Positions 3,589 to 58,598 of a stretch of DNA of 64,000 bases are shown one piece after another (position 1 is the stretch's first letter; each line of letters opens with the position of its first letter). Below the pieces are notes generated by a model. That model had not been told where the DNA came from, ran no database searches, and saw only the letters and a list, made by a program, of their open reading frames with translations. Source of the DNA: Candidatus Liptonbacteria bacterium. Its GTDB lineage: Bacteria; Patescibacteriota; Minisyncoccia; UBA6257; 2-01-FULL-56-20. The stretch spans positions 4,988-68,987 of the forward strand of contig JACQKU010000014.1 in assembly GCA_016204335.1 (NCBI GenBank), given 5' to 3'. The position numbers and the translations under genes are program-made.

Positions 3589-3664
3589 GGGCATGTAGCT
3601 CAACGGTTAGAGCACGAAGCTTATACCTTCGGGGTTCCTGGTTCGAATCCAGGCATGCCCACCA
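3589..3664 (+). tRNA. tRNA-Ile with UAU anticodon (AUA decoder), CCA encoded
   Basis: GGGCATG-TA-GCTC-AACGGTTA-GAGC-A-CGAAG-CTTATAC-CTTCG-GGGTT-CCTGG-TTCGAAT-CCAGG-CATGCCC-ACCA. The 7-nt anticodon loop gives T34 A35 T36. Confidence 0.7.
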
Positions 3665-3682: not shown

Positions 3683-4135
3683 ATGAATATAGAAATAAAA
3701 CAAACAACCGAATCCTCAAAAGCATACGAAATAGCAAAATCTTTGCCGGAATATTTTGATGAAAGCGGATTAAAATCAATTGAGCAAGATACAAAAAATA
3801 ATATGCTTTTTGGGGCATATCGTGATAATGAAATGATAGGTTTTGTTGCATATAAAGAAATTAACAATGAAGCAATAGAAATGTCGTGGCTTGGAGTACT
3901 GCCACAGTATCAAGGAAAAAATTATGGCAAAATCTTGGTTGAAAAAAGTTTGGCTGAACTTTCGCAAAAATATAAAGTGTGCGAAGTTAAAACACTTTCT
4001 AATTCTGATGACTATGAACCGTATAAAAAAACTAGGGCATTTTATAAAAGCTTGGGTTTTATCCCGATAGAAACAATTTCGCCATATCCGGGTTGGGGCA
4101 ATAATCCTTGTCAGATTTTTGTGATGTTTTTATGA
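3683..4135 (+). CDS. GNAT family N-acetyltransferase (AT-rich, likely acquired)
   Basis: Acetyl-CoA binding motif LPQYQGKNYGKILV; 150 aa; GC much lower than flanks. Confidence 0.65.
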   Translation: MNIEIKQTTESSKAYEIAKSLPEYFDESGLKSIEQDTKNNMLFGAYRDNEMIGFVAYKEINNEAIEMSWLGVLPQYQGKNYGKILVEKSLAELSQKYKVCEVKTLSNSDDYEPYKKTRAFYKSLGFIPIETISPYPGWGNNPCQIFVMFL

Positions 4136-4141
4136 ATAAAG

Positions 4142-4591
4142 ATGCAAGTAACAGAATTCCGTTCAAAAGTTAAACCGGATATAACATTGTCAATTGACGG
4201 CAAAAATTTTACCGTCAAAGAAGTAGTCAAGTTCAGATTTGACGACAAAACGTTTTACACAAAATGTTTTTTGAATGACGGCTATGTTTTTGCGGATGAT
4301 TTGGCGGAGAACATATTTGTCTTGGTCAAAGAAACACAAACTCCGTTTCGGGAGCCGTTTTCACAAGTGCTTGATTTTGGCGGAAAGAAATTTAAATTTC
4401 TTTATGCCGCTCACGCAACGGCGGAAGAAATTCAAGGAGAAGCGATTTTTAAAAAAGGGGATTCCGAAACATTTCGGGATTACAAAGCGGAAGACGGTAG
4501 TTATTTAAGTTTGGGAGTAAACGATAAGACCGGCGAGAGAATGGATTTCTACGGCAGGATTGTCAGAAATGACAGTGTTTGGATTGGATAG
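4142..4591 (+). CDS. hypothetical protein (possibly DUF4178-like), AT-rich, 7 bp after the GNAT gene
   Basis: 149-aa ORF with good coding look, no recognisable motif. Confidence 0.45.
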   Translation: MQVTEFRSKVKPDITLSIDGKNFTVKEVVKFRFDDKTFYTKCFLNDGYVFADDLAENIFVLVKETQTPFREPFSQVLDFGGKKFKFLYAAHATAEEIQGEAIFKKGDSETFRDYKAEDGSYLSLGVNDKTGERMDFYGRIVRNDSVWIG

Positions 4592-5021
4592 ATAATCTAT
4601 ATTAATGAAAGGATGTAATTAAAAGATATTTCCGAGCGGAAGTTCCTTTTTTGATTTCTGTTTTTCCATATATGGATAACCTGTTGATATCTTGATAGCC
4701 GAAGCGGAATTTATATAAGTAAATCAACACTTTTCTCCTTTGGAGAAAAGGTTTTTTATTTTTTGACTCATTCACGGAGTGGCGTATTATTGAGTGGAAG
4801 TGGGGAATTGTGGATGAATCTGGGGATAAAGCCCCTTTTCTGTGCATAACCCCATTCGCAACTTTATTTTTGAGAGCCGGCGTAAAATTTCTCCAGCGGA
4901 AATTTTCGCCTGCATCTCGCGCCGATGAGTCGCCAAGGGCGACACCAAGCTCATCGGCGCTCCGATAGCCTCTCAAAAATAAAATTGCTCATTCACTGGT
5001 TTTTGCAAGGCATGGTTAATT

Positions 5022-5107
5022 AGTAAATGGGTTATTTGGCTAACAAGAGAATTCAAAATCAATTAATTTCGTGATTCTGACTTAATTACCAAATTACCCA
5101 TTTACCA
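5022..5107 (+). promoter_or_regulatory. putative MraZ operator/promoter: inverted repeat AGTAAATGGGTTATTTGG / CCAAATTACCCATTTACC plus tandem ATTTGGTAA motifs immediately upstream of mraZ
   Basis: Two 18-nt arms are near-perfect reverse complements and end 8 nt before the mraZ ATG. MraZ family proteins autoregulate by binding repeats upstream of their own gene. Confidence 0.4.
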
Positions 5108-5114
5108 AATAACT

Positions 5115-5546
5115 ATGTTCATCGGCGAATACACGCACAATCTGGATTCCAAAGGTCGGCTGGCGGTTCCGGCGAAGTTCAGGGAAAAACTTTCGTCGGG
5201 CGCCATAATCACGCGTGGACTTGATAACTGTCTTTTCGTGTTCGGCGGCAAAGAATGGGACGCGCTTGCGCAGAAACTCATCGCGCTTCCGTTGAGCCAG
5301 GCGAATTCGCGGGCATTCGTCCGTTTGATGCTTGCCGGCGCAATGGATGTGGAGATAGACGGCCAGGGCAGAATTTTAATTCCCGATTATTTGAGAAAAT
5401 ATGCTTCGCTGAACAAAGAAACCGTAATTGCCGGACTCTACAACCGGATGGAAATTTGGGACAGGAACAACTGGGAGCGCTACAAGCAAAAAACCGAAAG
5501 CGCTTCGGAAGAAATCGTGGAGAAGCTCGGAGAACTCGGTATTTGA
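5115..5546 (+). CDS. mraZ: transcriptional regulator MraZ
   Basis: MFIGEYTHNLDSKGRLAVPAKFR..; two MraZ repeats; 143 aa; first gene of the dcw cluster. Confidence 0.9.
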   Translation: MFIGEYTHNLDSKGRLAVPAKFREKLSSGAIITRGLDNCLFVFGGKEWDALAQKLIALPLSQANSRAFVRLMLAGAMDVEIDGQGRILIPDYLRKYASLNKETVIAGLYNRMEIWDRNNWERYKQKTESASEEIVEKLGELGI

Positions 5547-7030: not shown

Positions 7031-8671
7031 ATGAACTGGCGATATCCTTTTTTGATTGTCGCGACAACGGGAATGTATCTATTTCTGTTTTTGCATCTGT
7101 ATCAGATTCAATTGGTGGACGGAGGTTATTATCTTGAACGAGCCGAAACGCAGTATTTTGCGTCCGGAATTCTCAAAGCAAAAAGGGGAACGATTTACTT
7201 TCTGGATAAAAACGACAATCGTCTCGCAGTCGCGGTAAATAAAAATTTTCCGGTTATTTACGCCGTGCCGAGCGACATCGAAGATGTTCCGGGAACCGTC
7301 CGGCGTTTGGCGGAGCTTTTTCCGCAAGCGATGCCTGCTCTCGAGAAGGGACTTTCCCGCGAGGAAAGCAGTTATTATCTTCTGCAAAGAAAAGCCGATT
7401 CCGATATGGCGGCGAAAATCGCGAATGAAAAAATAAAAGGCGTATACGTTAATTCCGTTCCGGAGAGATTTTATCAGTTTGGAACGCTCGCCGCGCATCT
7501 TTTGGGTTTTGTGGGAGCGGACAGCGCCGGCGCCGGCGAGAGCGGCCGCTACGGACTCGAAAAATTTTATGATAATACGCTCAGCGGCGTTTCCGGAAAA
7601 ACCGAGAACGGAAAAATAATACAGCCGCGCGACGGAGAGGATTTGGTTCTGACCGTAGATATGAATATTCAAAGAGAGGCGGAACGTATTTTGGGCGCAT
7701 TGGTGAAGGACTATAATGCGAAGGGAGGCACGGTCATCGTCGAAGAGCCGGCGACCGGAAAAATTCTCGCGATGGGCGGCTATCCCAATTTCAATCCCAA
7801 TAATTACAGCCAGGGGAATATCGGCGATTTTTTAAATCCGATGATTCAAAAAATTTACGAACCCGGCTCGGTGTTCAAAGTTATCACGATGGCGGCGGGC
7901 ATTGATTTGGGAAAGATAACGCCGGATACGACCTATATCGACGCCGGCGCGCTGACGATAAACGGGAGAAAAATTTCGAATTACGATTTCCAAACGCGCG
8001 GCGCGTACGGCAAAGCCACAATGACGAATGTAATCGAACATTCCATCAATACCGGCGCGGTCTTTGCGGAAGGGAAAATCGGAAACGAACCGTTCAGAGA
8101 TTATCTTTTGAAATTCGGCTTCCGGCAAAAAACCGGCATTGATTTGCCCGGAGAGGTGAGCGGCGACCTTAAACCGTTGTTCAGCCGCGGAGCGCCGCAG
8201 GTTAATTTCGCCACAGCGTCGTTTGGCCAGGGAGTCGCCGTCACTCCAATTGAACTCATTAGCGCGATTGCCGCGATTGCGAACGGCGGGAAAATGATGC
8301 GACCGTACGTTAACAGCGCGTCTGCGCCGCAAGAAGTCGCGGCGGTCATCAATCCTTCGACAGCCCGGCTTGTGATAGAGATGATGGTTTCCGCCGTTGA
8401 CAAAGCGAATGTCGCGGCGATAAAAGGGTATTCGATAGCCGGTAAAACAGGAACCGCCTATGTGCCAAATTTCAAACACGGCGGTTATACCGACAATGTA
8501 ATCAACACGTATGTCGGATTCGGGCCTGCTGACAATCCTCGTTTCATCGCGCTCATAAAATTGGACGAGCCGGAGAACGCGCCGCTTGCGGGAGTGACGG
8601 TTGTGCCGGCATTCCGCGATTTGGCGCAGTTTATTTTCAATTATTATAATGTTCCGCCGGACAGGTTATGA
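7031..8671 (+). CDS. ftsI: peptidoglycan D,D-transpeptidase (PBP2/FtsI class)
   Basis: N-terminal TM, SxxK (GSVFK), SxN (HSINTG), KTG (KTGTA) motifs. Confidence 0.85.
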   Translation: MNWRYPFLIVATTGMYLFLFLHLYQIQLVDGGYYLERAETQYFASGILKAKRGTIYFLDKNDNRLAVAVNKNFPVIYAVPSDIEDVPGTVRRLAELFPQAMPALEKGLSREESSYYLLQRKADSDMAAKIANEKIKGVYVNSVPERFYQFGTLAAHLLGFVGADSAGAGESGRYGLEKFYDNTLSGVSGKTENGKIIQPRDGEDLVLTVDMNIQREAERILGALVKDYNAKGGTVIVEEPATGKILAMGGYPNFNPNNYSQGNIGDFLNPMIQKIYEPGSVFKVITMAAGIDLGKITPDTTYIDAGALTINGRKISNYDFQTRGAYGKATMTNVIEHSINTGAVFAEGKIGNEPFRDYLLKFGFRQKTGIDLPGEVSGDLKPLFSRGAPQVNFATASFGQGVAVTPIELISAIAAIANGGKMMRPYVNSASAPQEVAAVINPSTARLVIEMMVSAVDKANVAAIKGYSIAGKTGTAYVPNFKHGGYTDNVINTYVGFGPADNPRFIALIKLDEPENAPLAGVTVVPAFRDLAQFIFNYYNVPPDRL

Positions 8672-8805: not shown

Positions 8806-10089
8806 ATGAGAACCTTTCTAATCAGTCTCCTCCGGTGGGTTTTAAAAAAAGTTGCACAACTCACTGTGCTACGCTACCGGCCCGGAATAGTCGGCATAAC
8901 CGGAAGCGTGGGCAAGACCTCGACCAAGCTTGCCATTGCGGCTGTTCTGGGACCGAGCCGCCACATAAGATTTTCCAAAAGCAATCTCAACAGCGACCTT
9001 GGATTGCCGATTACGGTTATCGGCGATTTTCGGGAAGAAGAATTGAAACTTGTCAGCCGGGACCAGCCGGCGCATGAAAAAAGGATTCGGAAAGCTTTTT
9101 TTTGGCTCAAGGTCATTTTTGTCGGTTTGTTCCGCCTCATCGTAAAAAAACAGGGCTACCCGGACATTTTGATTCTCGAGTACGGCGCGGACAGGCCCGA
9201 CGACCTGAAAAATCTTCTTGAAATCGCGCGGCCGAATATCAGTGTAATTACGGCTGTCGGCGACGTACCGGTTCATACGGAATTTTTCGGCGGGCCGCAG
9301 GAAGTGGCTCGGGAGAAAGCGCGGCTCATAGAATATCTGCCGTCATCGGGCTTCGCTGTTTTAAATTATGACGACGAAACGGTAATGGCTTTGAAAGAAC
9401 GAACCCGCGGCCATATTGTGACGTTCGGTTTCGGAAAAGGCGCGGAAGTCAGAACAATGAATTTTGAAAACAGAATTGAAAACAATCATCCGGGGGGAAT
9501 TTTTTTCAAATTGGAATACGGAGGCAGTTCGGTGCCGGTGCGGATAGACGGGGTGTTCGGCAAGGTGCAGGGATACGCCGCCGGAGCCGCCGCCGCCGTC
9601 GGTTTGATTTTCGGGCTGAATCTCATTAAGATTGCCGAGGCGTTGAAAGAGTACCGGCCGGCTTCTGGAAGGATGGAACTTTTACAAGGCATCAAGTCCT
9701 GTCTTATAATCGACAGCTCGTATAACGCAAGTCCGCTTTCGATGCATGCGGCGCTTGACCTCTTGAACGATTTGCCGGGAAAAAGAAAAATCGCCGTGCT
9801 CGGCGATATGCTCGAGATCGGAAAATATACGCTCGAGGCGCACGAGCGAGTCGGCAAGCTCGCGGCAGAGTTCGTTGACGCGCTCGTTACGGTGGGCCCT
9901 GCCGCAAAACTCATTGCCGAAGCCGCGAGAAAAAACGGTATCCCAAAAAGGAACATCCACAGTTTTGACACTGTCGATAACGCCGTCGAGCCGGTAGAGA
10001 ATTTAATCAAAAAAGGGGACTTGATTCTTGTGAAGGGCTCGCGCGCGATGGAACTTGAAAAGATTGTGGAGGGAATAAAAGCAGTATAA
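8806..10089 (+). CDS. murF: UDP-N-acetylmuramoyl-tripeptide--D-alanyl-D-alanine ligase
   Basis: Mur ligase P-loop IVGITGSVGKTSTK, DSSYNASP motif, 427 aa, dcw synteny. Confidence 0.85.
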   Translation: MRTFLISLLRWVLKKVAQLTVLRYRPGIVGITGSVGKTSTKLAIAAVLGPSRHIRFSKSNLNSDLGLPITVIGDFREEELKLVSRDQPAHEKRIRKAFFWLKVIFVGLFRLIVKKQGYPDILILEYGADRPDDLKNLLEIARPNISVITAVGDVPVHTEFFGGPQEVAREKARLIEYLPSSGFAVLNYDDETVMALKERTRGHIVTFGFGKGAEVRTMNFENRIENNHPGGIFFKLEYGGSSVPVRIDGVFGKVQGYAAGAAAAVGLIFGLNLIKIAEALKEYRPASGRMELLQGIKSCLIIDSSYNASPLSMHAALDLLNDLPGKRKIAVLGDMLEIGKYTLEAHERVGKLAAEFVDALVTVGPAAKLIAEAARKNGIPKRNIHSFDTVDNAVEPVENLIKKGDLILVKGSRAMELEKIVEGIKAV

Positions 10090-10148
10090 ATCGGTAATTA
10101 AGTAATTAGGTAATTGAGAAATTGACGGGATGGCCCCATCGTCTACCC

Positions 10149-10278
10149 CCACACCTATTTTTGGATAATATGCTCTTATCGTCTAGTCTGGTCTAGGACA
10201 TCACGTTCTCAACGTGAAGACCCGGGTTCAAATCCCGGTGAGAGTACAAATTAAAATGGCAATCCAAAATAGGTGTGG
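10149..10278 (+). repeat. 17-18 bp inverted repeat CCACACCTATTTT(T)GGAT / ATCCAAAATAGGTGTGG enclosing tRNA-Glu
   Basis: Arms at ~10149-10166 and ~10262-10278 are exact reverse complements apart from one extra T. Confidence 0.6.
10172..10246 (+). tRNA. tRNA-Glu (anticodon CTC)
   Basis: GCTCTTA-TC-GTCT-AGTCTGGTC-TAGGAC-A-TCACG-TTCTCAA-CGTGA-AGAC-CCGGG-TTCAAAT-CCCGG-TGAGAGT-A; acceptor stem has two G-U pairs; no CCA. Confidence 0.6.
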
Positions 10279-10295
10279 AGGTCTCGTGGCTAGGA

Positions 10296-10352
10296 CCCAC
10301 GCACCAGAGCAGAGCTCGGTGCGGGGCAAGCACGACGTTCTCAACGTCGGGA
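10296..10352 (+). repeat. repeat A copy 1: ~55-nt multi-hairpin element CGCACCAGAGCAGAGCTCGGTGCGGGGCAAGCACGACGTTCTCAACGTCGG
   Basis: Near-identical second copy at 11528-11584; contains a 10-bp hairpin and a tRNA-like CGACG-TTCTCAA-CGTCG hairpin. Confidence 0.7.
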
Positions 10353-10430
10353 CACGAGTTCTCCGCCTAGGGCGGATCCGCCTCAGGCGGAGATTCTCCT
10401 TGGGGCTACAAAATTAGATTTTTTAAAAAA

Positions 10431-10796
10431 ATGGATCAAGATCATATAGAAAGAAAGAGTTTGGAATATGCTTTCGATGCTGGATTAAAATTTTTTCTCC
10501 ATTGGTCATTATTAGCGGGAGGGACTTTGACGCTTATGATTCCATTTGTTCAAAGCCTTAAGGGCGTAATGGTATATCGTTATTTGTTTATAGCGTCAGA
10601 AATTTGTTTGATTATTTCACTTATTTCCTCGTCGCTGGTTGTTTTTGGGGCCAGCCAAATAAGTTGGAGTAATGCAACTAAGGCAGAAACTAAAGGAATC
10701 GCGAAAATGCAGGGAATAAACTATAAGGTTGCAATCGTAGCGTATATAGCAGGAATTATTTTAGCTTTTTTCTTCATCAACGCTAATTTAACGTAA
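10431..10796 (+). CDS. hypothetical membrane protein (AT-rich)
   Basis: 121-aa ORF with 3 predicted TM helices; low GC. Confidence 0.4.
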   Translation: MDQDHIERKSLEYAFDAGLKFFLHWSLLAGGTLTLMIPFVQSLKGVMVYRYLFIASEICLIISLISSSLVVFGASQISWSNATKAETKGIAKMQGINYKVAIVAYIAGIILAFFFINANLT

Positions 10797-10807
10797 GTTA
10801 ATGTAAG

Positions 10808-10854
10808 ACTCACTCCACCGTCACCGATTTCGCGAGATTGCGCGGGCGGTCGAT
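10808..10854 (+). repeat. repeat B copy 1: duplicated 3' end of glmS (CTCCACCGTCACCGATTTCGCGAGATTGCGCGGGCGGTCGA)
   Basis: About 45 of 47 nt identical to the genuine glmS 3' terminus at 12036-12082. Confidence 0.75.
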
Positions 10855-10861
10855 GTTTTGG

Positions 10862-10889
10862 CTTGACAACGATTATAATCAAATTATAA
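10862..10889 (+). promoter_or_regulatory. sigma70-like promoter TTGACA-16/17-TATAAT upstream of the antitoxin gene
   Basis: TTGACAACGATTATAATCAAATTATAAT ends 8 nt before the antitoxin ATG. Confidence 0.5.
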
Positions 10890-10896
10890 TCCCATT

Positions 10897-11130
10897 ATGA
10901 CTCAAAAAGTATTACAAGTGGGAACTTCCGCGGCTGTCACGATTCCCAAGGAATCTCTAAAAACTTTGGGGTTAAAAGTGGGAGACAGAATCCGCCTTGA
11001 AGTTGACGCCAAGCGTAGGGTAGTTCGGATTGAACCTTTGGCGCCGCAGGTCAACGGAGAACTTTTGGAATGGACCGATGCGTTTATCAAGCGGTATCGG
11101 AACGCACTCGACGCTCTCGCGAAAAAATAA
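10897..11130 (+). CDS. AbrB/MazE (SpoVT-AbrB) family antitoxin
   Basis: VLQVGTSAAVTIPKESLKTLGLKVGDRIRLEV swapped-hairpin motif; 77 aa; stop 4 nt before the doc start. Confidence 0.65.
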   Translation: MTQKVLQVGTSAAVTIPKESLKTLGLKVGDRIRLEVDAKRRVVRIEPLAPQVNGELLEWTDAFIKRYRNALDALAKK

Positions 11131-11134
11131 TCTT

Positions 11135-11521
11135 ATGCGGTATGTGAGCGGAGAAGAGATTTTGGTGTTGCACGCCCGTATTCTTGACGCTACGGGCGGC
11201 GCGCACGGGGTGCGCGACTAGCGCCTTCTTGCTTCATTGCTCGAAAAACCCAAAATGAAATTCGGCGGAAAAGAGTTGTACGCCGGAGTGTTCCGCAAGG
11301 CCGGGGTGTATTTCGAAGCGTTGGCGACGTACCATGTGTTTATCGACGGCAACAAGCGGACGGAGCTCGCGGTTGCGGCACGATTTCTCTTTTTGAACGG
11401 CTATACTCTTGTTTCTACCAACAACCAAGCCGAAAAGTTCATTCTCGGCGTTGCGTTGAAGAAGCATGACGTAAAAGCAATTGCAAAATGGCTGAAACAG
11501 AATTCGGAAAGGTTGGATTAA
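11135..11521 (+). pseudogene. doc: Doc (Fic family) toxin interrupted by an in-frame TAG at 11219-11221
   Basis: MRYVSGEEILVLHARILDATGGAHGVRD-stop-RLLASLLEKPK..HVFIDGNKRT (Fic/Doc motif). N-terminal segment (inside ORF 11030..11221) and C-terminal ORF 11237..11521 are in the same frame. Confidence 0.6.
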
Positions 11522-11527
11522 TCTACC

Positions 11528-11584
11528 CGCGCACCAGAGCAAAGCTCGGTGCGGGGCAAGCACGACGTTCTCAACGTCGGAACA
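11528..11584 (+). repeat. repeat A copy 2
   Basis: CGCACCAGAGCAAAGCTCGGTGCGGGGCAAGCACGACGTTCTCAACGTCGG followed by T-arm-like AGGGGTTTGATTCCCCT. Confidence 0.7.
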
Positions 11585-11736
11585 GGGGTTTGATTCCCCT
11601 TGAGGCTACTGGCTAAAGGGTTCCCTGCCCGCCGAAGCTTTTAGCAAAGGCGGGGATTCCCGTAAGCGCTACAAATATTTAAAACTGAAGAAGCCGCCCG
11701 CCTGCGACTTCAACAGTCCTGCAGGGGACGGCTTGA

Positions 11737-12021
11737 CTACTTCTTTTTGGCCGAGCGCTTCTTCGGCGAGGCGTCCGATGGCGCCGGCGACGGTTTGAGT
11801 GACTCATACCACGGTTCGATGAGCGCCCGGAAGAGCTCTCTTGATCTTTCAGGGCTCAAGTTCCGGACTTTCATCACCACGGAGCGGTTCGAGCCAATCC
11901 ACATCTTGTCCTCCTTCGTCAGGGTGGAAGAGTCGGTCGTTATTGACAGGCGCTTCCGGCTGACAAGGAAGAAGTTGCAAAGAGCTAGTTTGATTAAAGC
12001 TCTAAAGAGAAAAAATATCAA
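11737..12021 (-). CDS. small hypothetical ORF with lysine-rich C-terminus (possibly a remnant)
   Basis: 94-aa ORF ending SPKKRSAKKK; lies inside the repeat-bounded islet; weak support. Confidence 0.2.
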   Translation of the reverse strand: MIFFLFRALIKLALCNFFLVSRKRLSITTDSSTLTKEDKMWIGSNRSVVMKVRNLSPERSRELFRALIEPWYESLKPSPAPSDASPKKRSAKKK

Positions 12022-12035
12022 GCGATCCTATAATA

Positions 12036-12082
12036 ACCTACTCCACCGTCACCGATTTCGCGAGATTGCGCGGGCGGTCGAC
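12036..12082 (+). repeat. repeat B copy 2 = native 3' end of glmS
   Basis: See 10808-10854. Confidence 0.75.
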
Positions 12083-13858
12083 GTTGAGTCCTTTTTGCCG
12101 CGCGAAATAATAGGCGAATAATTGAAGCGGAATCGCCGAAAGAATCGGCGAGAGCATTTCAAGCGTTTTTGGAACGTAGATGACGTCATCGGCGACACCG
12201 CGAACTTCTTCCGAACCCTCGGTCGCGAGCGCGATTATTTTTCCTTTCCGCGCTTTGATTTCCTGCATGTTCGAGAGCATTTTTTCGTAGACGCTGTCGC
12301 GGAGCGCGATTGCCATGGTCGGAAAATTCTCGTCAATCATCGCGAGCGGCCCGTGTTTCATTTCTCCGGCTCCGCATCCTTCCGCGTGGATATAGGAAAT
12401 TTCTTTCAGTTTCAGCGCGCCCTCCAGCGCGATGGGATAATTGTATTTTCTTCCGATGTAGAGAAAATCGCGCGAGTCCGCATATTTTTCCGCGAGCGAT
12501 TGCAAATATTCTTTTTGCCCCAAAATCGCCTCGATTTTTTCCGGCAGTAAAAGCAATTCTTCTGCTATCCGTTTTCCCATTGTGGCGGACATTTGCCTTT
12601 GCCTGCCGAGGAAAAGCGTAATGAGTGAAAGCGCGGTCAGTTGCGATATGAACGCTTTCGTGGACGCGACGCCGATTTCAGGGCCAGCATGGTTGTAAAT
12701 GCCCGCGTCTGTTTCGCGCGCGATGGTCGAGCCGATGGCGTTCACGACGCCGAGCGCGAGCGCGCCCTTCCGTTTTCCTTCGCGGATTGCTTCGAGCGTG
12801 TCGAGCGTTTCGCCCGACTGGGAAATAGCGAGAAGAATCGTATCGCCGTCAATGACCGGTTTTCTGTATCTGAACTCGGACCCTACTTCGACTTCAACGG
12901 GAATGCCGGCGTATTCCTCGAGCATATATTCGCCGACAAGACCGGCATAATACGCCGTGCCGCAGGCGACAATGATAATCCGTTTTACATCGCGCAGTTT
13001 ATCCGCAACCGATTCGAGCCCGCCGAGTTTCGCGAGTCCGTCCTTGACGATTAATCTTCCCCGAATCGTATTTTTCAAAACCTCCGGCGCTTCCATAATT
13101 TCCTTCAGCATAAAATGCTCGTAGCCGCCTTTTTGCGCCTGCGAAATATCCCACTCGATTGTTTCCGGCGTTCCGATTACGCGGTTGTGGTCGAGCGTGT
13201 AGATGTTGTGCGATGAAGGCGTAATGACCGCGATTTCGCCGTCGCGCAGGTAAATCACGTTTTTCGTGTGTCGCAGAATCGGCGACGGGTCGGACGCGAT
13301 GAAATTTTCGTTTTCGCCCAAGCCCAAAACAACCGGAGCGCCCATCCTGCCAGTGATGATTTTTTCCGGTTCTTTGCTGTATGCGATTGCGAGGCCATAT
13401 GTTCCTCGGACTTCGCGAAGCGAGGCAATTACCGCTTTTTCGAAGTCATTTTCCTTTTTCAAATTTTCTTCTATCAAATGGGCAAGAACTTCAGTGTCGG
13501 TGTCGGAAACGAACGTATGTTTTTTCTTGATGAGCTTGTCTTTGATTTCCTTGTAATTTTCTATGATGCCGTTGTGCGCTACCCAGATTTCACCGGCGCA
13601 ATCCGAATGCGGATGGGCGTTTATCTCGGTCGGCTCGCCGTGCGTTGCCCAGCGCAGATGCGCGATTCCGCTTTGCCCTTTAAAGTTTTGCGGAACTTTC
13701 GCTTTTAGATTGCCAACCGCGCCGACTGCCTTGACGGTTCCCGCTTCGGGAATAAAAATACCTGCCGAATCATATCCCCGGTATTCTAGGGAAGTAAGGC
13801 CGTCAAGAAGCACTTCCGCCGCGTTTTTCTTGCCCGTGTAAGCGAATATTCCACACAT
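12038..13858 (-). CDS. glmS: glutamine--fructose-6-phosphate aminotransferase
   Basis: MCGIFAYTGKK.. with N-terminal nucleophile Cys2, two SIS domains, C-terminal ..SVTVE; 606 aa. Confidence 0.95.
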   Translation of the reverse strand: MCGIFAYTGKKNAAEVLLDGLTSLEYRGYDSAGIFIPEAGTVKAVGAVGNLKAKVPQNFKGQSGIAHLRWATHGEPTEINAHPHSDCAGEIWVAHNGIIENYKEIKDKLIKKKHTFVSDTDTEVLAHLIEENLKKENDFEKAVIASLREVRGTYGLAIAYSKEPEKIITGRMGAPVVLGLGENENFIASDPSPILRHTKNVIYLRDGEIAVITPSSHNIYTLDHNRVIGTPETIEWDISQAQKGGYEHFMLKEIMEAPEVLKNTIRGRLIVKDGLAKLGGLESVADKLRDVKRIIIVACGTAYYAGLVGEYMLEEYAGIPVEVEVGSEFRYRKPVIDGDTILLAISQSGETLDTLEAIREGKRKGALALGVVNAIGSTIARETDAGIYNHAGPEIGVASTKAFISQLTALSLITLFLGRQRQMSATMGKRIAEELLLLPEKIEAILGQKEYLQSLAEKYADSRDFLYIGRKYNYPIALEGALKLKEISYIHAEGCGAGEMKHGPLAMIDENFPTMAIALRDSVYEKMLSNMQEIKARKGKIIALATEGSEEVRGVADDVIYVPKTLEMLSPILSAIPLQLFAYYFARQKGLNVDRPRNLAKSVTVE

Positions 13859-14803
13859 AGGTAAAGTATATCAAAGATTGGAGATTGAAACTTATTATAA
13901 AAACTTGAGGGGCGCCGCGCACGTGGCACGGACACCCCTCGTTGCTTCGCTCGCCGCCGCGTCCTAGCGGCGGTGGCGATTTCTGCCGAGCGGCTCGAGG
14001 AGGTCTCTCAGCTCGCCGGCGACGCACTGGACGCGTCGCGGCCGTGAATTCCTCCAAGCCCTCCTTGCGCACCGGCATGCTTCCAACTCCTGCACTACGG
14101 GCGCGCAGAGCATACGACAGACGTCGTCCTCATTGAATTGAACCCGACTTGCTTGAGCTCGTCGGGAGTGAACTCGAGTTTCGCCCAATACGTATACCGT
14201 CCGTGCTCGCGCGGATTCGCCTCTTCGAACCGGTGAGCCATTCTGGGGCTGACTCTGCGCGGGTTAATCACGCGCTGGAGCCCACTACTGTGATGCATAA
14301 GAGCCAAGTACCCGGAAGTCCGCCCTTCTCGAATGACCTGCAGGCGGACTCTTGCGGCCGGAACAGTGGTGCGAGTGATCGAGTTGGTCATGCGGCCCCC
14401 TTGTGGTGGGATTGGTTTATTCAATCCCGGGTTTGAGTTTGCTCCGACGCTCTTACAAAAAACAGAATCCCTATTCCGCCAAAGAGCCCTGCCACAACGG
14501 CGAAAGTTCCGCGGAGCAAGGGTTGCTCCACCACTTCGCCGCCTACGACGCACATCACGAATACCAAAATACAACACAACCCAGCTATTTTCACGGCACT
14601 CTCCTTAGTAGGTTAGAGTTAGAAGCATTTCAGTCATCTCTTCGCCTTGAGACGCAATAACCAAGAAAGTTAGTTTCCAAGTTCTTGCGTATCGAGGAGT
14701 TATATTATTAAAGAGCTGAAAGTAATATAGAACATTTAAGGGTATTTTGTCAATTTTTTTCGCTGCATTATCGCGGGCGCAAAAACCTGTTATAATCTCC
14801 CGA

Positions 14804-15922
14804 ATGAGGTTATACGAATTCGAAGGCAAGCGGCTTTTTGAGAAATACGGCATTCCGGTGCCGAAGAGCGTGTTGCTGGAAAAATCCGGAAAAGTTTCCG
14901 GCATTAAGTTGCCGGTCGTACTTAAAGCCCAGGTTTTGTCCGGTGAACGGAAAAGCGCGGGCGGTATTCTTTTCCCGAAAAATAAATCGGAACTTTCACA
15001 CGGGCTCAAAAAACTTTTCGCGGCGCATATCCGCGGCGAACCCGTTCAAAAAATTTTAGTTGAGGGGCGTATCTCGGCTTCGCGCGAATATTATCTTTCG
15101 TTGAGTTACGACACCGACACGCGCGGTCCGGTTTTGGCTTTTTCTTCCCGCGGCGGCTCGCGCATAGCCATCGCGCTGAAGGCGAATGTCGCGCCGCTCG
15201 ATATTCTTCTCGGCGCAAAACCGTTTTTAATCCGCGAAGCGCTGTCAAAAGGAAAAGTTCCGTCCGAAGATATCAACGGCCTCGCGAAGGTCATTATAAA
15301 TTTATGGAAGCTTTTTGTTTCCGAATACGCGCTCGTCGCCGAAATCAATCCGTTGTTTCGGACTCCGAGCGGAGAATTTATCGCGGGAGACGCGAAAGTC
15401 ATTCTTGACGACGAAAAATTGAACCCCGGCGAGCGGAGATTCATCGAACTCGGCGGCGACATCGCGATTTTGGCGTCCGGCGGCGGCGCGTCGCTTTTGA
15501 ACATTGACGCGCTTCTCCAGTATAAAGGGAAGCCCGCGAATTACACCGAATACTCCGGCAACCCTCCGGCTGACGTGGTAAAAGCGCTAACACAGCGCGT
15601 GCTCGGCAGGCCCGGGCTCAAAGGCGCGTGGGTAATCGGCGGCACCGCGAATTTCACGGACATTTACGAAACACTGAAAGGATTTATCGAAGGACTCCGG
15701 CAGGTAAAACCGAAACCGGCATATCCGATTGTTATCCGGCGCGACGGCCCCAATCAGGAAAAAGCGTTCGCGATGCTCCGCGAAGTAGCCAAAAAAGAGG
15801 GGTACGACTTCCACCTTTTTAATTCGAAAACCTCGATGGCGGAGTCGGCGAAATTGATGGTGAAATATGCGTACCATGATAAAATCAAAATTCAAACTGC
15901 AAATATCAAAATGAAAGAGTAA
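14804..15922 (+). CDS. succinyl-CoA synthetase beta / ATP-citrate lyase small-subunit-like ATP-grasp protein
   Basis: MRLYEFEGKRLFEKYGIPVP (SucC N-terminus), LVAEINPL, GGGASLL. The ORF-track start 14747 is probably an overcall. TATAAT at 14791-14796 precedes the ATG at 14804. Confidence 0.75.
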   Translation: MRLYEFEGKRLFEKYGIPVPKSVLLEKSGKVSGIKLPVVLKAQVLSGERKSAGGILFPKNKSELSHGLKKLFAAHIRGEPVQKILVEGRISASREYYLSLSYDTDTRGPVLAFSSRGGSRIAIALKANVAPLDILLGAKPFLIREALSKGKVPSEDINGLAKVIINLWKLFVSEYALVAEINPLFRTPSGEFIAGDAKVILDDEKLNPGERRFIELGGDIAILASGGGASLLNIDALLQYKGKPANYTEYSGNPPADVVKALTQRVLGRPGLKGAWVIGGTANFTDIYETLKGFIEGLRQVKPKPAYPIVIRRDGPNQEKAFAMLREVAKKEGYDFHLFNSKTSMAESAKLMVKYAYHDKIKIQTANIKMKE

Positions 15923-24599: not shown

Positions 24600-26060
24600 C
24601 CTCCTCTGCTCACAATCTTCCCGCCGTTCCAGTCCAGGCCCCCACACGCCGCACAGGCGTTCGTCGGGGGTCTCGTTCATTTTTGAGACTTTTCGAAGTG
24701 AGAATACGTATATGGAAGTTTTTTCCCGCTTCTACCCAACGCGGAGATTTTCGTTTTGAAAGCAGCTCTCGGAGGCAACAAAAGCTTGGTGTCCGAAGGA
24801 CTTTTGTTGCTGAGAGGAAGACGAAAAACACCGCTGGAGTGTTTTTACGGCGGTGCTTTCAAAACGAAAACCGGAGCACCTGCACAAGTTCAGATACATA
24901 TGAGACTTTTCGAACGGTCGAAAAGTCATGCGAATCCATAGCAAAATAGCTCATACCCGAGGGTTTGTCTCAACCTACAACGAGGCGCTACGCTTGCGGG
25001 ATATGATTACCCGTAAAGCAGAGGAACGCGCCCGCATCCTCGCGTTCTGGCAGAAGCACGGGGATGCCGCAGCCAAAGAGGCGTTCACCATTTCTCGTCC
25101 CACCTTGTTTCGATGGCAGAACAATCTCCATGCCGGAAGCGGCAAGCTCGAGGCATTGAATCCGGGAAGCACCGCGCCGAAGAACAGACGGAAACGGACG
25201 ATCCCTGAATCAGTCAAAGACCTCATTCTCACGGAACGTTCACGCGAGCGCATAGGCAAAGAGAAACTTGCCTTGCTTCTCAAGGAAGACGGCATCGCAA
25301 CGCTCTCGCCGTCAACGGTCGGCAGGATGCTCGATGATATGAAGCGCGCCGGCAAACTTCCGAACCCGCGCAAACTCTCTTTCTCGGGAAAGACCGGACG
25401 GCTCAACGAGCGAATAGCCCCGCAATACAAGAAGAAACTGCGGAGCAATGGCCATGAGGGAGCTCTCGTGAAAGCCGATACCGTGGTGAGATTCACGAAC
25501 GGCATCAAGCGGTATATTCTGACCGCGATTGATCAAGAAACGAAGTTTGCTTTCGCGTATGGCTACCCCTCGCATGGCTCGCAGCATGCCGCTGAGTTTA
25601 TGCAGACCTTCAAAGACGTGGCGCCAATTTCTCTGACTCATGTGCAGACGGATAACGGAAGCGAATTTGCAAATCATTTTGAGTCCTATCTGACCACAGA
25701 AGGCATTATCCATTTCCATATTTATCCCCGTTCTCCCCAGATGAATGCGGAGATCGAACGATTCAACCGGACCTTGTCCGAAGCCTTTATCTCGAAGAAC
25801 AGACATTTGTTGGCATACGACCTTCCCGCATTCAATCGAGAACTTATGGATTGGTTACTGTGGTACAACACGCGCAGGCCGCACTGGTCGATTGGCTTGA
25901 TTTCTCCGTTGAGGTATATTGTGAATCAACTACCCGCCGAAGAGTCTCATATGTTGTGGACGAGTACAGCACCTTGACTTTTAGTTGCAAGCCATGCTAT
26001 ACTCTCTTCGAATGAGTGTGAATATGCCTTAACGATGATATCGACTAAGGTATGTCGCAT
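24600..26060 (+). mobile_element. probable IS element carrying the transposase; ends not resolved
   Basis: Transposase ORF preceded by a 330-bp structured non-coding tract with GAGACTTTTCGAA direct repeats; no clean terminal inverted repeats found by eye. Confidence 0.35.
24928..25977 (+). CDS. IS481-like family DDE transposase (HTH + rve integrase core)
   Basis: N-terminal HTH (ISRPTLFRWQ), DDE core with DNGSEF, C-terminal YNTRRPHWSIGLISP; alternative start at 25003. Confidence 0.8.
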   Translation: MRIHSKIAHTRGFVSTYNEALRLRDMITRKAEERARILAFWQKHGDAAAKEAFTISRPTLFRWQNNLHAGSGKLEALNPGSTAPKNRRKRTIPESVKDLILTERSRERIGKEKLALLLKEDGIATLSPSTVGRMLDDMKRAGKLPNPRKLSFSGKTGRLNERIAPQYKKKLRSNGHEGALVKADTVVRFTNGIKRYILTAIDQETKFAFAYGYPSHGSQHAAEFMQTFKDVAPISLTHVQTDNGSEFANHFESYLTTEGIIHFHIYPRSPQMNAEIERFNRTLSEAFISKNRHLLAYDLPAFNRELMDWLLWYNTRRPHWSIGLISPLRYIVNQLPAEESHMLWTSTAP

Positions 26061-58448: not shown

Positions 58449-58598
58449 ATTCAAAAATCAAATATCAAAGTGCAAAATGAAAGCGTAAAATGAAAAAAGA
58501 ATTCAAGCACATTCTTTTTTCCGCCCGAGGCGGATCCGCCTTCGGCGGAGAATTTTGATTCGTCATTTTGATTTTTGACTTTTGCATTTTGTATTTTA
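58447..58598 (+). repeat. MITE family 1 degenerate copy with double CCGCC/GGCGG hairpin loop
   Basis: AAATTCAAAAATCAAATATCAAAGTGCAAAATGAAAGCG.. / ..TTTTGATTTTTGACTTTTGCATTTTGTATTTT; loop TCCGCCCGAGGCGGATCCGCCTTCGGCGGAG resembles 10362-10395. Confidence 0.6.

Follow-up and report, generated by a model that had tools for sequence, protein, structure and literature searches.

A tRNA-Glu/glmS spacer with displaced gene ends in a Candidatus Liptonbacteria genome, probably built by successive insertions anchored on gene termini

How genes are gained and lost in the very small genomes of the Candidate Phyla Radiation (CPR) is little understood, and the locus described here raises this question on the scale of a single intergenic region. 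In a metagenome-assembled genome (MAG) of 'Candidatus Liptonbacteria', an islet of ~1.9 kb extends from a tRNA-Glu gene to glmS and carries an antitoxin gene, a doc toxin gene and two pairs of direct repeats, A and B. We analysed it within a 64-kb contig stretch, hereafter the window, and compared it with related loci (labelled L011 to L132) that were fetched from metagenome contigs, Logan or NCBI assemblies. The closest glmS genes among GTDB species representatives are at most 77% identical and all belong to Parcubacteria/Patescibacteria. A sequence-only reading of the window had seen in the islet a decaying integrative element. How, then, could copies of two different repeats come to alternate in so short a space? 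The answer that we favour, with modest confidence, is that the islet is a convergent tRNA-Glu/glmS spacer, probably built by successive insertions that were each anchored on a gene terminus and that each left a displaced gene end behind.

Both repeat pairs that the sequence-only reading had reported are present, in the order A1-B1-A2-B2. The copies of pair B (10812-10857 and 12040-12085, spacing 1228) agree at 45 of their 46 nt and are, as had been proposed, a duplicate of the glmS 3' end and a genuine insertion footprint. Indeed, the duplication spans 15 glmS codons and B1 has its own stop codon (TGA, minus strand, 10810-10812); with a single differing base, the pair is uninformative on the origin of the allele. 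Pair A (10295-10360 and 11525-11590, spacing 1230) had been described as an independent multi-hairpin element, and this view has to be abandoned. Alignment of the repeat limits extends pair A, with a 30-nt indel, to a tRNA-like 3' end (10295-10409 and 11525-11609), and pair A is the 3' two-thirds of a tRNA-Glu(CTC) gene carrying a 35-nt hairpin insert. Direct repeats of a target-gene terminus, 98% identical over 46 nt for B and 92% identical over 66 nt for A, bound both ends of the cargo.

The possibility that these repeats belong to a family dispersed over the whole genome, which the sequence-only reading had raised against itself, finds no echo in the 64 kb of the window, where each pair occurs exactly twice (0 matches in 100 shuffles). 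An exact 32-nt pattern from pair A found no match in metagenome contigs, and a pattern from the anticodon arm found none in 80 loci. In the window and the fetched loci, the 35-nt hairpin occurs only at 10297-10331 and 11527-11561; since it is present only in A1 and A2, we rejected it as a dispersed element.

The alternation of the repeats can be traced to what follows doc. A2 is devoid of the 5' acceptor strand and of the D arm, and reaches 26.8 bits with the Rfam tRNA model, for which the threshold is 29; positions 11579-11609 are 93.5% identical to the 3' end of the tRNA-Glu gene of L082, a syntenic genus-level relative that was found through its intact Doc homologue (L083, L084 and L113 are equivalent to it). 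The sequence behind A2, called flank f, has the end ATTCCCGTAAGCGCTAC and matches ATTCCCGTAAGCGGTAC (~8346-8366) downstream of L082 tRNA-Glu, and because of this match A2 together with flank f can be read as native tRNA-Glu downstream sequence. In the window, the doc stop is followed by T, by CTAC and then by the A2 hairpin; behind the doc stop of L082 stand C, CTAC and TCC. CTAC corresponds to the glmS stop codon and one adjoining base read on the complementary strand, and it recurs at 12038-12041. Between the two occurrences lie 511 nt (11527-12037) that hold A2, flank f, a terminator-like hairpin and an orphan open reading frame (ORF) of 55 aa. This segment makes sense by itself as the tRNA-Glu-to-glmS spacer that a strain lacking the cassette would have, and it is absent from all four genus-level relatives. 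The window therefore presents two alternative spacers in tandem, 10297-11526 with a membrane-like ORF, B1 and the toxin-antitoxin cassette, and 11527-12041, and a single junction with 2-4 bases of microhomology (AC/CTAC) makes A and B alternate; from two independent simple integrations one would expect the repeat pairs to be nested or to lie apart. For the 55-aa ORF, neither a Pfam family nor a homologue was found.

Comparison with relatives dates the cassette. L082 carries, in this order, mraZ, rsmH, a penicillin-binding protein (PBP) gene, murF, tRNA-Glu(CTC), two unrelated ORFs, MazE, an intact Doc and glmS. In L082 and L113 doc abuts glmS, its stop codon being two bases from that of glmS, and the intact doc of L085 likewise abuts glmS. 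L086 displays the same layout as B1, cassette and B2, with an upstream methyltransferase gene followed by a 62-nt copy of the glmS end (328-389), a promoter, MazE, an intact Doc and glmS. With regard to the empty site that the sequence-only reading expected among relatives, the picture is mixed: at the level of the family, all 80 fetched glmS loci are free of the cassette, and at the level of the genus, all four relatives carry it at the same site. At the nucleotide level, the cassette is as similar to that of the relatives (78-81%) as the flanking core genes are to theirs (73-74% for murF and the PBP gene, 79-84% for glmS), which indicates that the cassette and the B1 scar predate these species. 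Of the decaying integrative element first proposed, the glmS-end footprint and the inactivated toxin are thus retained, but not the idea of a single recent repeat-bounded element, because genus-level relatives have the cassette in the same place.

The cassette itself is as had been described, an AbrB-type antitoxin gene followed by a doc gene with an in-frame TAG, and both have Pfam matches. The antitoxin is 78-92% identical to those of L082-L087 (92% to that of L085), and its gene ends 4 nt before doc. Among the 402 Doc homologues found, the closest are intact and 75-83% identical. The TAG (11219-11221) is doc codon 29, which in relatives encodes Leu, Ala, Met, Ile or Thr; in L085 it is TTG, one transversion (T to A) away from TAG. 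This genome uses TAG as a normal stop codon, in which glmS and many other window genes end, so that under genetic code 11 the TAG in doc is a true premature stop. Recoding was rejected on the same ground, and there is no suppressor tRNA in the window. The NCBI annotation retains only an 88-aa C-terminal piece of doc (P0012). As judged from its sequence, the cargo is a type II antitoxin-Doc module whose toxin is inactivated by a nonsense mutation. Doc of phage P1 belongs to the Phd/Doc type II module, with a Fic/Doc fold and the motif HxFx(D/N)(A/G)NKR. The present module resembles such systems in its small antitoxin gene directly upstream of a Doc of ~128 codons, in its Fic/DOC motif and in its strong predicted promoter over an inverted repeat; it differs in that the antitoxin has a MazE/AbrB fold, not a Phd one, and in that the toxin is stopped at codon 29. 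The predicted promoter is conserved in L082, L086 and L088. The antitoxin ATG stands 6 nt after the -10 box and is not preceded by a Shine-Dalgarno sequence (10863-10899), a layout kept in the same three relatives, and both features suggest a leaderless transcript.

Spare gene termini are not confined to this islet. Searching with the GlmS C-terminal peptide, we found a second co-oriented copy with its stop codon downstream of glmS at five other loci: 63-98 bp away in L011, L014 and L039, 1.49 kb away in L012 and 3.5 kb away in L050, where a degenerate third copy also exists (15827-15853). The cargo between the glmS ends ranges from 36 nt to 3.5 kb, and the duplicated end from 7 to 20 or more codons. 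A nucleotide self-search had missed those copies that had diverged synonymously, and the peptide search recovered them. Furthermore, nucleotide alignment of the cassette flanks at loci with Doc homologues revealed direct repeats 689-1046 nt apart in L086, L087/L088, L092, L101, L102, L120/L121, L130 and L132. The repeat corresponds to the first 16-34 codons of ychF in L130 and L132, to the start of dnaG in L101 and of gatC in L102, to the end of a convergent gene in L121 and to other termini in L088 and L092. In a control with windows shifted along these loci, a score of at least 38 was reached in 6 of 33 real versus 1 of 150 control windows.

The spare copies have evolved as coding sequence. 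At 10 loci, spare and genuine termini differ at 65 positions, 52 of which are third codon positions (p about 1e-14), and the codon changes comprise 51 synonymous and 6 non-synonymous ones. Such mostly synonymous differences indicate that the two copies diverged as working gene ends in different lineages, so that each insertion would have brought or displaced a foreign allele of the gene terminus.

Altogether, we propose the following history. In a first step, which the comparison with relatives shows, a minimal cassette of promoter, antitoxin gene and doc entered at the glmS 3' end, and a spare version of the glmS terminus, 15-20 codons long (B1), came to lie beyond it. In a second step, suggested by the anatomy of the locus, a second whole tRNA-Glu-to-glmS spacer would have been joined between the doc stop and the glmS stop, made of A2 (the tRNA 3' two-thirds), its native flank, the 55-aa ORF and the glmS terminator. 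In a third step, apparent in the gene itself, the resident tRNA-Glu took up three clean small inserts. As for the mechanism, DNA from related lineages may recombine through a conserved gene on one side and join illegitimately on the other: the incoming fragment would pair inside the conserved gene, and the resident terminus would survive as a stub. Illegitimate recombination is indicated by the many target genes, by glmS duplications of 7 to 20 or more codons and by the microhomology junction. Inserts flanked by repeats would be easily deleted, and toxin-antitoxin addiction would resist their loss; here, with doc knocked out by a change of the TTG-to-TAG type, this protection is gone.

Several observations weigh against this history. 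The recombination mechanism is inferred from sequence footprints, and the same footprint could arise from a recombinase or integrase acting in trans. A2 and the hairpin insert share their left edge, which is suspicious for the defined end of an element. B1 is 45/46 identical to the glmS end of its own genome, and in L086, too, B1 follows the glmS end of the same genome, despite the apparent age of the cassette; gene conversion or repeated excision and re-integration would be needed to keep the copies alike, and the latter favours a site-specific system. The near-equal spacings of the two repeat pairs (1230 and 1228) are left as an unexplained coincidence, since the interiors of the two units are unrelated. 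The excess of synonymous differences has to be read with the search in mind: the glmS spare copies of distant loci were found by peptide pattern, a subset biased to synonymous-only differences, and in the subset detected by nucleotide alignment 21 of 30 differences fall at third positions. Finally, the islet interior is covered by one assembly, and independent support, from the separate Logan contig L081, concerns the murF/tRNA 5' junction alone.

The strongest competitor is site-specific integration, in which one or two small non-autonomous elements, each with its own copy of the target end, would have used the glmS 3' end and the 3' part of tRNA-Glu as attachment sites for a tyrosine or serine recombinase supplied in trans, from another part of the genome or by a helper. 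We regard this as possible, if on the unlikely side. The footprints are canonical, with a complete tRNA on the left and a partial 3' copy with native flank on the right, and with a partial glmS end distal and a complete glmS proximal. The near-identity of B1 and the resident glmS end in two genomes is what cycles of excision and re-integration would produce, the cassette edges are tight (the -35 box stands 0-8 nt from the repeat, and doc ends directly at the target), and spare copies conserved as coding sequence are expected of target ends borne by an element. However, no tyrosine or serine recombinase was found among the islet ORFs, the other window ORFs tested or the islets of L012, L050 and L086; the search for a cognate recombinase that the sequence-only reading had in view has covered 64 kb of the genome and these comparable islets, and came back empty for the ORFs tested. 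The distances from repeat to repeat leave room only for the two toxin-antitoxin genes. In addition, one cassette family has many targets that are unrelated to one another (glmS, ychF, dnaG, gatC and others), loci differ in how much of the glmS end is duplicated (7 to 20 or more codons), and two simple integrations cannot yield the interleaving, for which one element would need to carry the target end of the other. The only mobility gene seen in the window, an rve-type (DDE) transposase gene with an HTH_32 domain (24928-25977), lies 13 kb away.

The 3' ends of genes, like tRNA genes, are well-known hot spots of integration, attTn7 at glmS among them, and a decaying toxin-antitoxin islet at such a place, with a Doc pair that is an ordinary member of its family, is the ordinary part of this locus. 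Tn7 inserts ~25 bp past the glmS stop codon, where it duplicates 5 bp, and brings with it tns genes and the Tn7 ends. The islet shares with it a hot spot marked by the conserved glmS 3' end, but here the duplication includes 15 codons of glmS coding sequence and there are neither tns genes nor Tn7 ends, so that Tn7 and CRISPR-associated transposons (CAST) were rejected. An integron cassette was rejected as well, because the flanking repeats are gene termini and not attC-like imperfect palindromes, and no integrase was found. Closer parallels are islands inserted at gene 3' ends, such as Salmonella genomic island 1 (SGI1) at the 3' end of trmE (PMC8409611). The islet resembles these islands and their integrase-less derivatives by its direct repeats of the target terminus, with the target intact and the partial copy distal; it differs by the lack of an integrase, by cargo down to ~0.7 kb or even tens of bases, by many targets including gene 5' ends and by a variable terminus length. 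At Rhs, contact-dependent inhibition (CDI) and type VI secretion system (T6SS) loci, orphaned 3' ends with immunity genes have been proposed to result from displacement by homology-facilitated illegitimate recombination (PMC5361080). These arrays and the present loci have in common a conserved gene as anchor, an old terminus that is displaced and not replaced, pieces from other lineages and events that stack. The anchors are here housekeeping genes (glmS, tRNA-Glu, ychF, dnaG, gatC) and the displaced pieces measure 4-102 nt, and for CPR bacteria the mechanism is a proposed one.

An assembly chimera, in which the assembler would have strung the alternative tRNA-Glu-to-glmS spacers of two strains in tandem, is improbable. 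It would fit a structure that is exactly two alternative spacers in tandem, in a window that comes from a MAG with no independent contig over the islet interior. Exact-protein look-ups with glmS, the antitoxin, P0012, the membrane ORF and the Doc C-terminal ORF gave no independent contig of the islet, and murF alone gave one, of 1.4 kb (L081), whose murF is identical and which therefore probably comes from the same organism as the window. But the doc/A2 junction shares 2-4 bases only, and the repeats (46 nt, and 66 nt with mismatches) are below usual final k-mers, so that reads spanning the junction would have been needed to assemble it. Moreover, the junction between the tRNA 5' fragment and the inverted-repeat module is reproduced in that separate Logan assembly.

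The resident, or outer, tRNA-Glu gene documents the third step of the gene-terminus-anchored history. The L082 tRNA-Glu sequence, GGCCCCATCGTCTAGTGGCCTAGGACATCGCCCTCTCATGGCGGGAACAGGGGTTCGATTCCCCTTGGGGCTACA, can be traced through positions 10132-10145, 10286-10296, 10332-10361 and 10392-10408 of the window, where the tRNA 3' end reads CCTTGGGGCTACA, and the resident gene is, by position and sequence, the orthologue of that of L082. Three inserts interrupt it: one of 140 nt in the D-loop, the 35-nt hairpin between positions 25 and 26, and a 30-nt palindrome in the T-loop. When all three are removed in silico, ARAGORN calls a 73-nt tRNA-Glu(CTC), and when any single one is kept it makes no call of the outer tRNA. 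Removal of the palindrome restores the T-loop TTCGATT, the anticodon arm is perfectly paired, and the spliced tRNA is 80% identical to that of L082 and has the same acceptor stem. As the sequence-only reading had seen, a tRNA-Glu lies within a 17-bp inverted repeat (arms 10145-10161 and 10266-10282). The arms are 17 nt long and 94% complementary (15/16-16/17 positions match), and in the predicted fold they close around a cloverleaf. This inner tRNA-Glu is the only canonical, intact tRNA-Glu of the window and is only 67-70% identical to any related tRNA-Glu. We conclude that the outer tRNA-Glu gene is most likely a pseudogene, its work being done by the inner tRNA-Glu on the D-loop insert.

It is very unlikely, in our view, that the outer tRNA-Glu still functions, with inserts that are intron-like or borne as tolerated arms and an inverted-repeat stem that serves as a processing stalk to free the inner tRNA. 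In its favour, all four stems can pair after the three precise deletions, the changes that set the anticodon stem apart from that of L082 are compensated, the fold of the entire 291-nt region is one large cloverleaf (z-score -8.2) and the hairpin is kept in both A1 and A2, where the two differences fall in its bulge and loop. Against this stand the size of the inserts, too small for group I introns and with no Rfam intron match, the lack of a bulge-helix-bulge geometry in the fold of the T-loop palindrome, the membership of this palindrome in a dispersed intergenic family, a C-C mismatch in the T stem and the intact tRNA-Glu with the same anticodon inside the gene. A group I intron was rejected specifically, for lack of an Rfam intron match (E up to 10) and because the inserts, of 30-140 nt, lie outside the anticodon loop. 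Multi-intron and split tRNAs exist in Archaea. In Patescibacteria, the tRNA interruptions known are group I introns in the anticodon loop (PMC13011429). The gene described here is similar to disrupted tRNA genes in that several interruptions leave exons that still make a perfect cloverleaf; it differs by inserts of 30-140 nt that occupy the D-loop, site 25/26 and the T-loop and are devoid of a group I signature, by the replacement tRNA nested inside and by the absence of a bulge-helix-bulge in the T-loop insert.

The D-loop insert may be a cassette resembling a miniature inverted-repeat transposable element (MITE) with a tRNA as passenger; apart from L081, no second copy was found in the window or in 142 fetched loci. 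MITEs and mobile insertion cassettes have terminal inverted repeats, an optional passenger gene and no transposase. The insert is like them in its length of ~135-140 nt, its terminal inverted repeats of 16-17 nt, its tRNA-Glu passenger and a possible target duplication: its flanks GTCTA and GTCTC match at 4 of 5 positions, which may represent an imperfect duplication of 4-5 nt and could be due to chance. It is unlike them in its single copy, in a tRNA passenger that sits in a tRNA target of the same anticodon and in that no matching transposase ends were found. The T-loop palindrome has relatives at 58521-58548 of the window, at 16094-16121 of L057 and at 9927-9954 of L038, forming a small dispersed intergenic family. 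The 30-nt double palindrome CCGCCnnnGGCGGATCCGCCnnnGGCGG, the same unit as this insert, recurs intergenically in several Parcubacteria and may be a small mobile or terminator-like element. In L082, a 127-nt element with an 18-bp closing stem (8198-8324; z-score -5.2; no Rfam family) stands directly after tRNA-Glu, and an older degenerate tRNA 3'-end remnant comes next. For annotation, two cautions follow from this gene: a functional tRNA may sit within a broken tRNA gene of the same anticodon, and fragments of tRNA genes can pass for free structured repeats.

The in situ tandem duplication of a ~1.23-kb unit whose interior then diverged, suggested by the near-identical periods of 1230 and 1228, is hardly credible and already contradicted, since the A-to-B interiors of the two units are unrelated (global alignment score equal to the shuffle mean, in-register identity of 24-28%, GC of 0.38 versus 0.53) and since the toxin-antitoxin cassette lies downstream of B1 whereas the glmS body lies downstream of B2.

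Two parts of the locus are worth following, the wider spare-terminus footprint and the tRNA within a tRNA. It is tempting, though doubtful at this stage, to extend them into a general scheme in which CPR genomes would gain small cassettes, notably Doc pairs, independently of recombinases, on foreign ends of housekeeping genes that displace the resident ones, and keep them by addiction, and in which small palindromic or inverted-repeat elements would enter tRNA loops cleanly, one of them delivering a replacement tRNA to the same gene that it breaks. If general, such a process would offer a simple means of cassette exchange between lineages and would explain the pile-up of toxin-antitoxin modules at such sites. 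The features of the islet and its two neighbouring genes are compiled in Table 1.

Table 1. Features from murF to glmS, with window coordinates, strand and basis of assignment
Feature	Position	Strand	Basis
murF, left conserved neighbour	8806..10089	+	Pfam Mur_ligase_M and Mur_ligase_C; syntenic with L082 6809-8095
Outer tRNA-Glu(CTC) nt 1-14 (acceptor 5' strand, D-stem 5' strand)	10132..10145	+	GGCCCCATCGTCTA identical to start of L082 tRNA-Glu, syntenic position; directly after murF
D-loop insert, 140 nt, bounded by inverted repeats, holding a complete tRNA-Glu(CTC)	10146..10285	+	Arms 10145-10161 / 10266-10282
Inner tRNA-Glu(CTC)	10172..10247	+	ARAGORN; Rfam tRNA 61.1 bits
Outer tRNA-Glu nt 15-25 (rest of D arm)	10286..10296	+	GTGGCTAGGAC matches L082 GTGGCCTAGGAC
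35-nt hairpin insert between tRNA positions 25 and 26; start of pair A copy 1	10297..10331	+	Predicted fold
Outer tRNA-Glu nt 26-56: anticodon arm (loop TTCTCAA), variable region, T-stem 5' strand, T-loop TTC	10332..10361	+	Repeat family and splice test
30-nt palindrome TCCGCCnnnGGCGGATCCGCCnnnGGCGGA in T-loop between C56 and G57	10362..10391	.	Inverted repeat
Outer tRNA-Glu nt 57-73 (T-loop 3' part, T-stem 3' strand, acceptor 3' strand, discriminator)	10392..10408	+	ATTCTCCTTGGGGCTA versus L082 ATTCCCCTTGGGGCTA
Membrane-like ORF, 121 aa, in AT-rich DNA	10431..10796	+	Weak DUF5823 match, E = 0.012; GC 0.28-0.40
B1, displaced glmS 3' terminus (NIDRPRNLAKSVTVE and stop TGA)	10810..10857	-	Repeat and peptide match
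Predicted promoter of toxin-antitoxin operon, TTGACA-16-TATAAT, overlapping inverted GATTATAAT/ATTATAATC motif	10863..10890	+	12/12 consensus
Antitoxin, 77 aa, MazE/AbrB-fold, intact	10897..11130	+	Pfam PF04014 MazE_antitoxin, E = 1.4e-8
doc toxin gene, 128 codons, TAG-interrupted	11135..11521	+	Pfam PF02661 Fic/DOC, E = 1.8e-12; motif HVFIDGNKRT
CTAC, first four bases of glmS terminus (stop codon and one base), beside doc at A2 junction	11523..11526	.	Reading versus L082 (TAA-C-CTAC-TCC)
A2: 35-nt hairpin (11527-11561) and tRNA-Glu nt 26-73, T arm uninterrupted	11527..11608	+	Repeat families
Flank f, native sequence 3' of tRNA-Glu; ends in older degenerate tRNA 3'-end remnant GATTCCCGTAAGCGCTAC	11609..11680	+	Match to L082 flank
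Terminator-like hairpin and T-run ending the glmS/small-ORF transcript	11690..11711	-	Sequence scan
55-aa orphan ORF, GGAGGA ribosome-binding site, downstream of glmS on glmS strand	11737..11904	-	ORF
glmS; B2 is the genuine 3' terminus, 12038-12085	12038..13858	-	Pfam SIS and GATase

The membrane-like ORF has no homologue in any fetched locus, and it is variable cargo, other genes occupying that place in relatives. Rfam searches of the islet (E up to 10) returned tRNA matches only, those of the whole window four tRNAs only, and those of the L082 flank and four Doc loci nothing new. In the ~890 nt upstream of glmS (13859-14746), there is no convincing ORF and no Rfam match, and in particular no glmS ribozyme.

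Some of the compared loci have features of their own. At four of them the Doc cassette separates a short 5' fragment from the complete copy of ychF (L132 1089-1981, L130 5658-6437), dnaG (L101 3685-4770) or gatC (L102 3004-3847), with a Phd-type antitoxin in L130 and L132 and a MazE-like one in L101 and L102. At both ychF loci, the doc stop and the ychF start codon overlap, so that ychF is probably read from the cassette transcript. In L012, the sole gene between the glmS ends (3814-5226) encodes a protein of unusual architecture, in which a cyclodipeptide synthase (CDPS) is joined to a family-3 solute-binding domain. The L050 islet (11830-15386) holds a bAvd-like protein, a reverse transcriptase like that of diversity-generating retroelements and an MNT/HepT toxin-antitoxin pair. 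L042 (13263-13415) and L035 (15737-15868) contain internal fragments of the glmS C-terminal region, not of its very end, 1.3-3.9 kb downstream of glmS. Elsewhere in the window, a tRNA-Ile gene at 3589-3664 has the anticodon TAT, which is uncommon for tRNA-Ile in bacteria.

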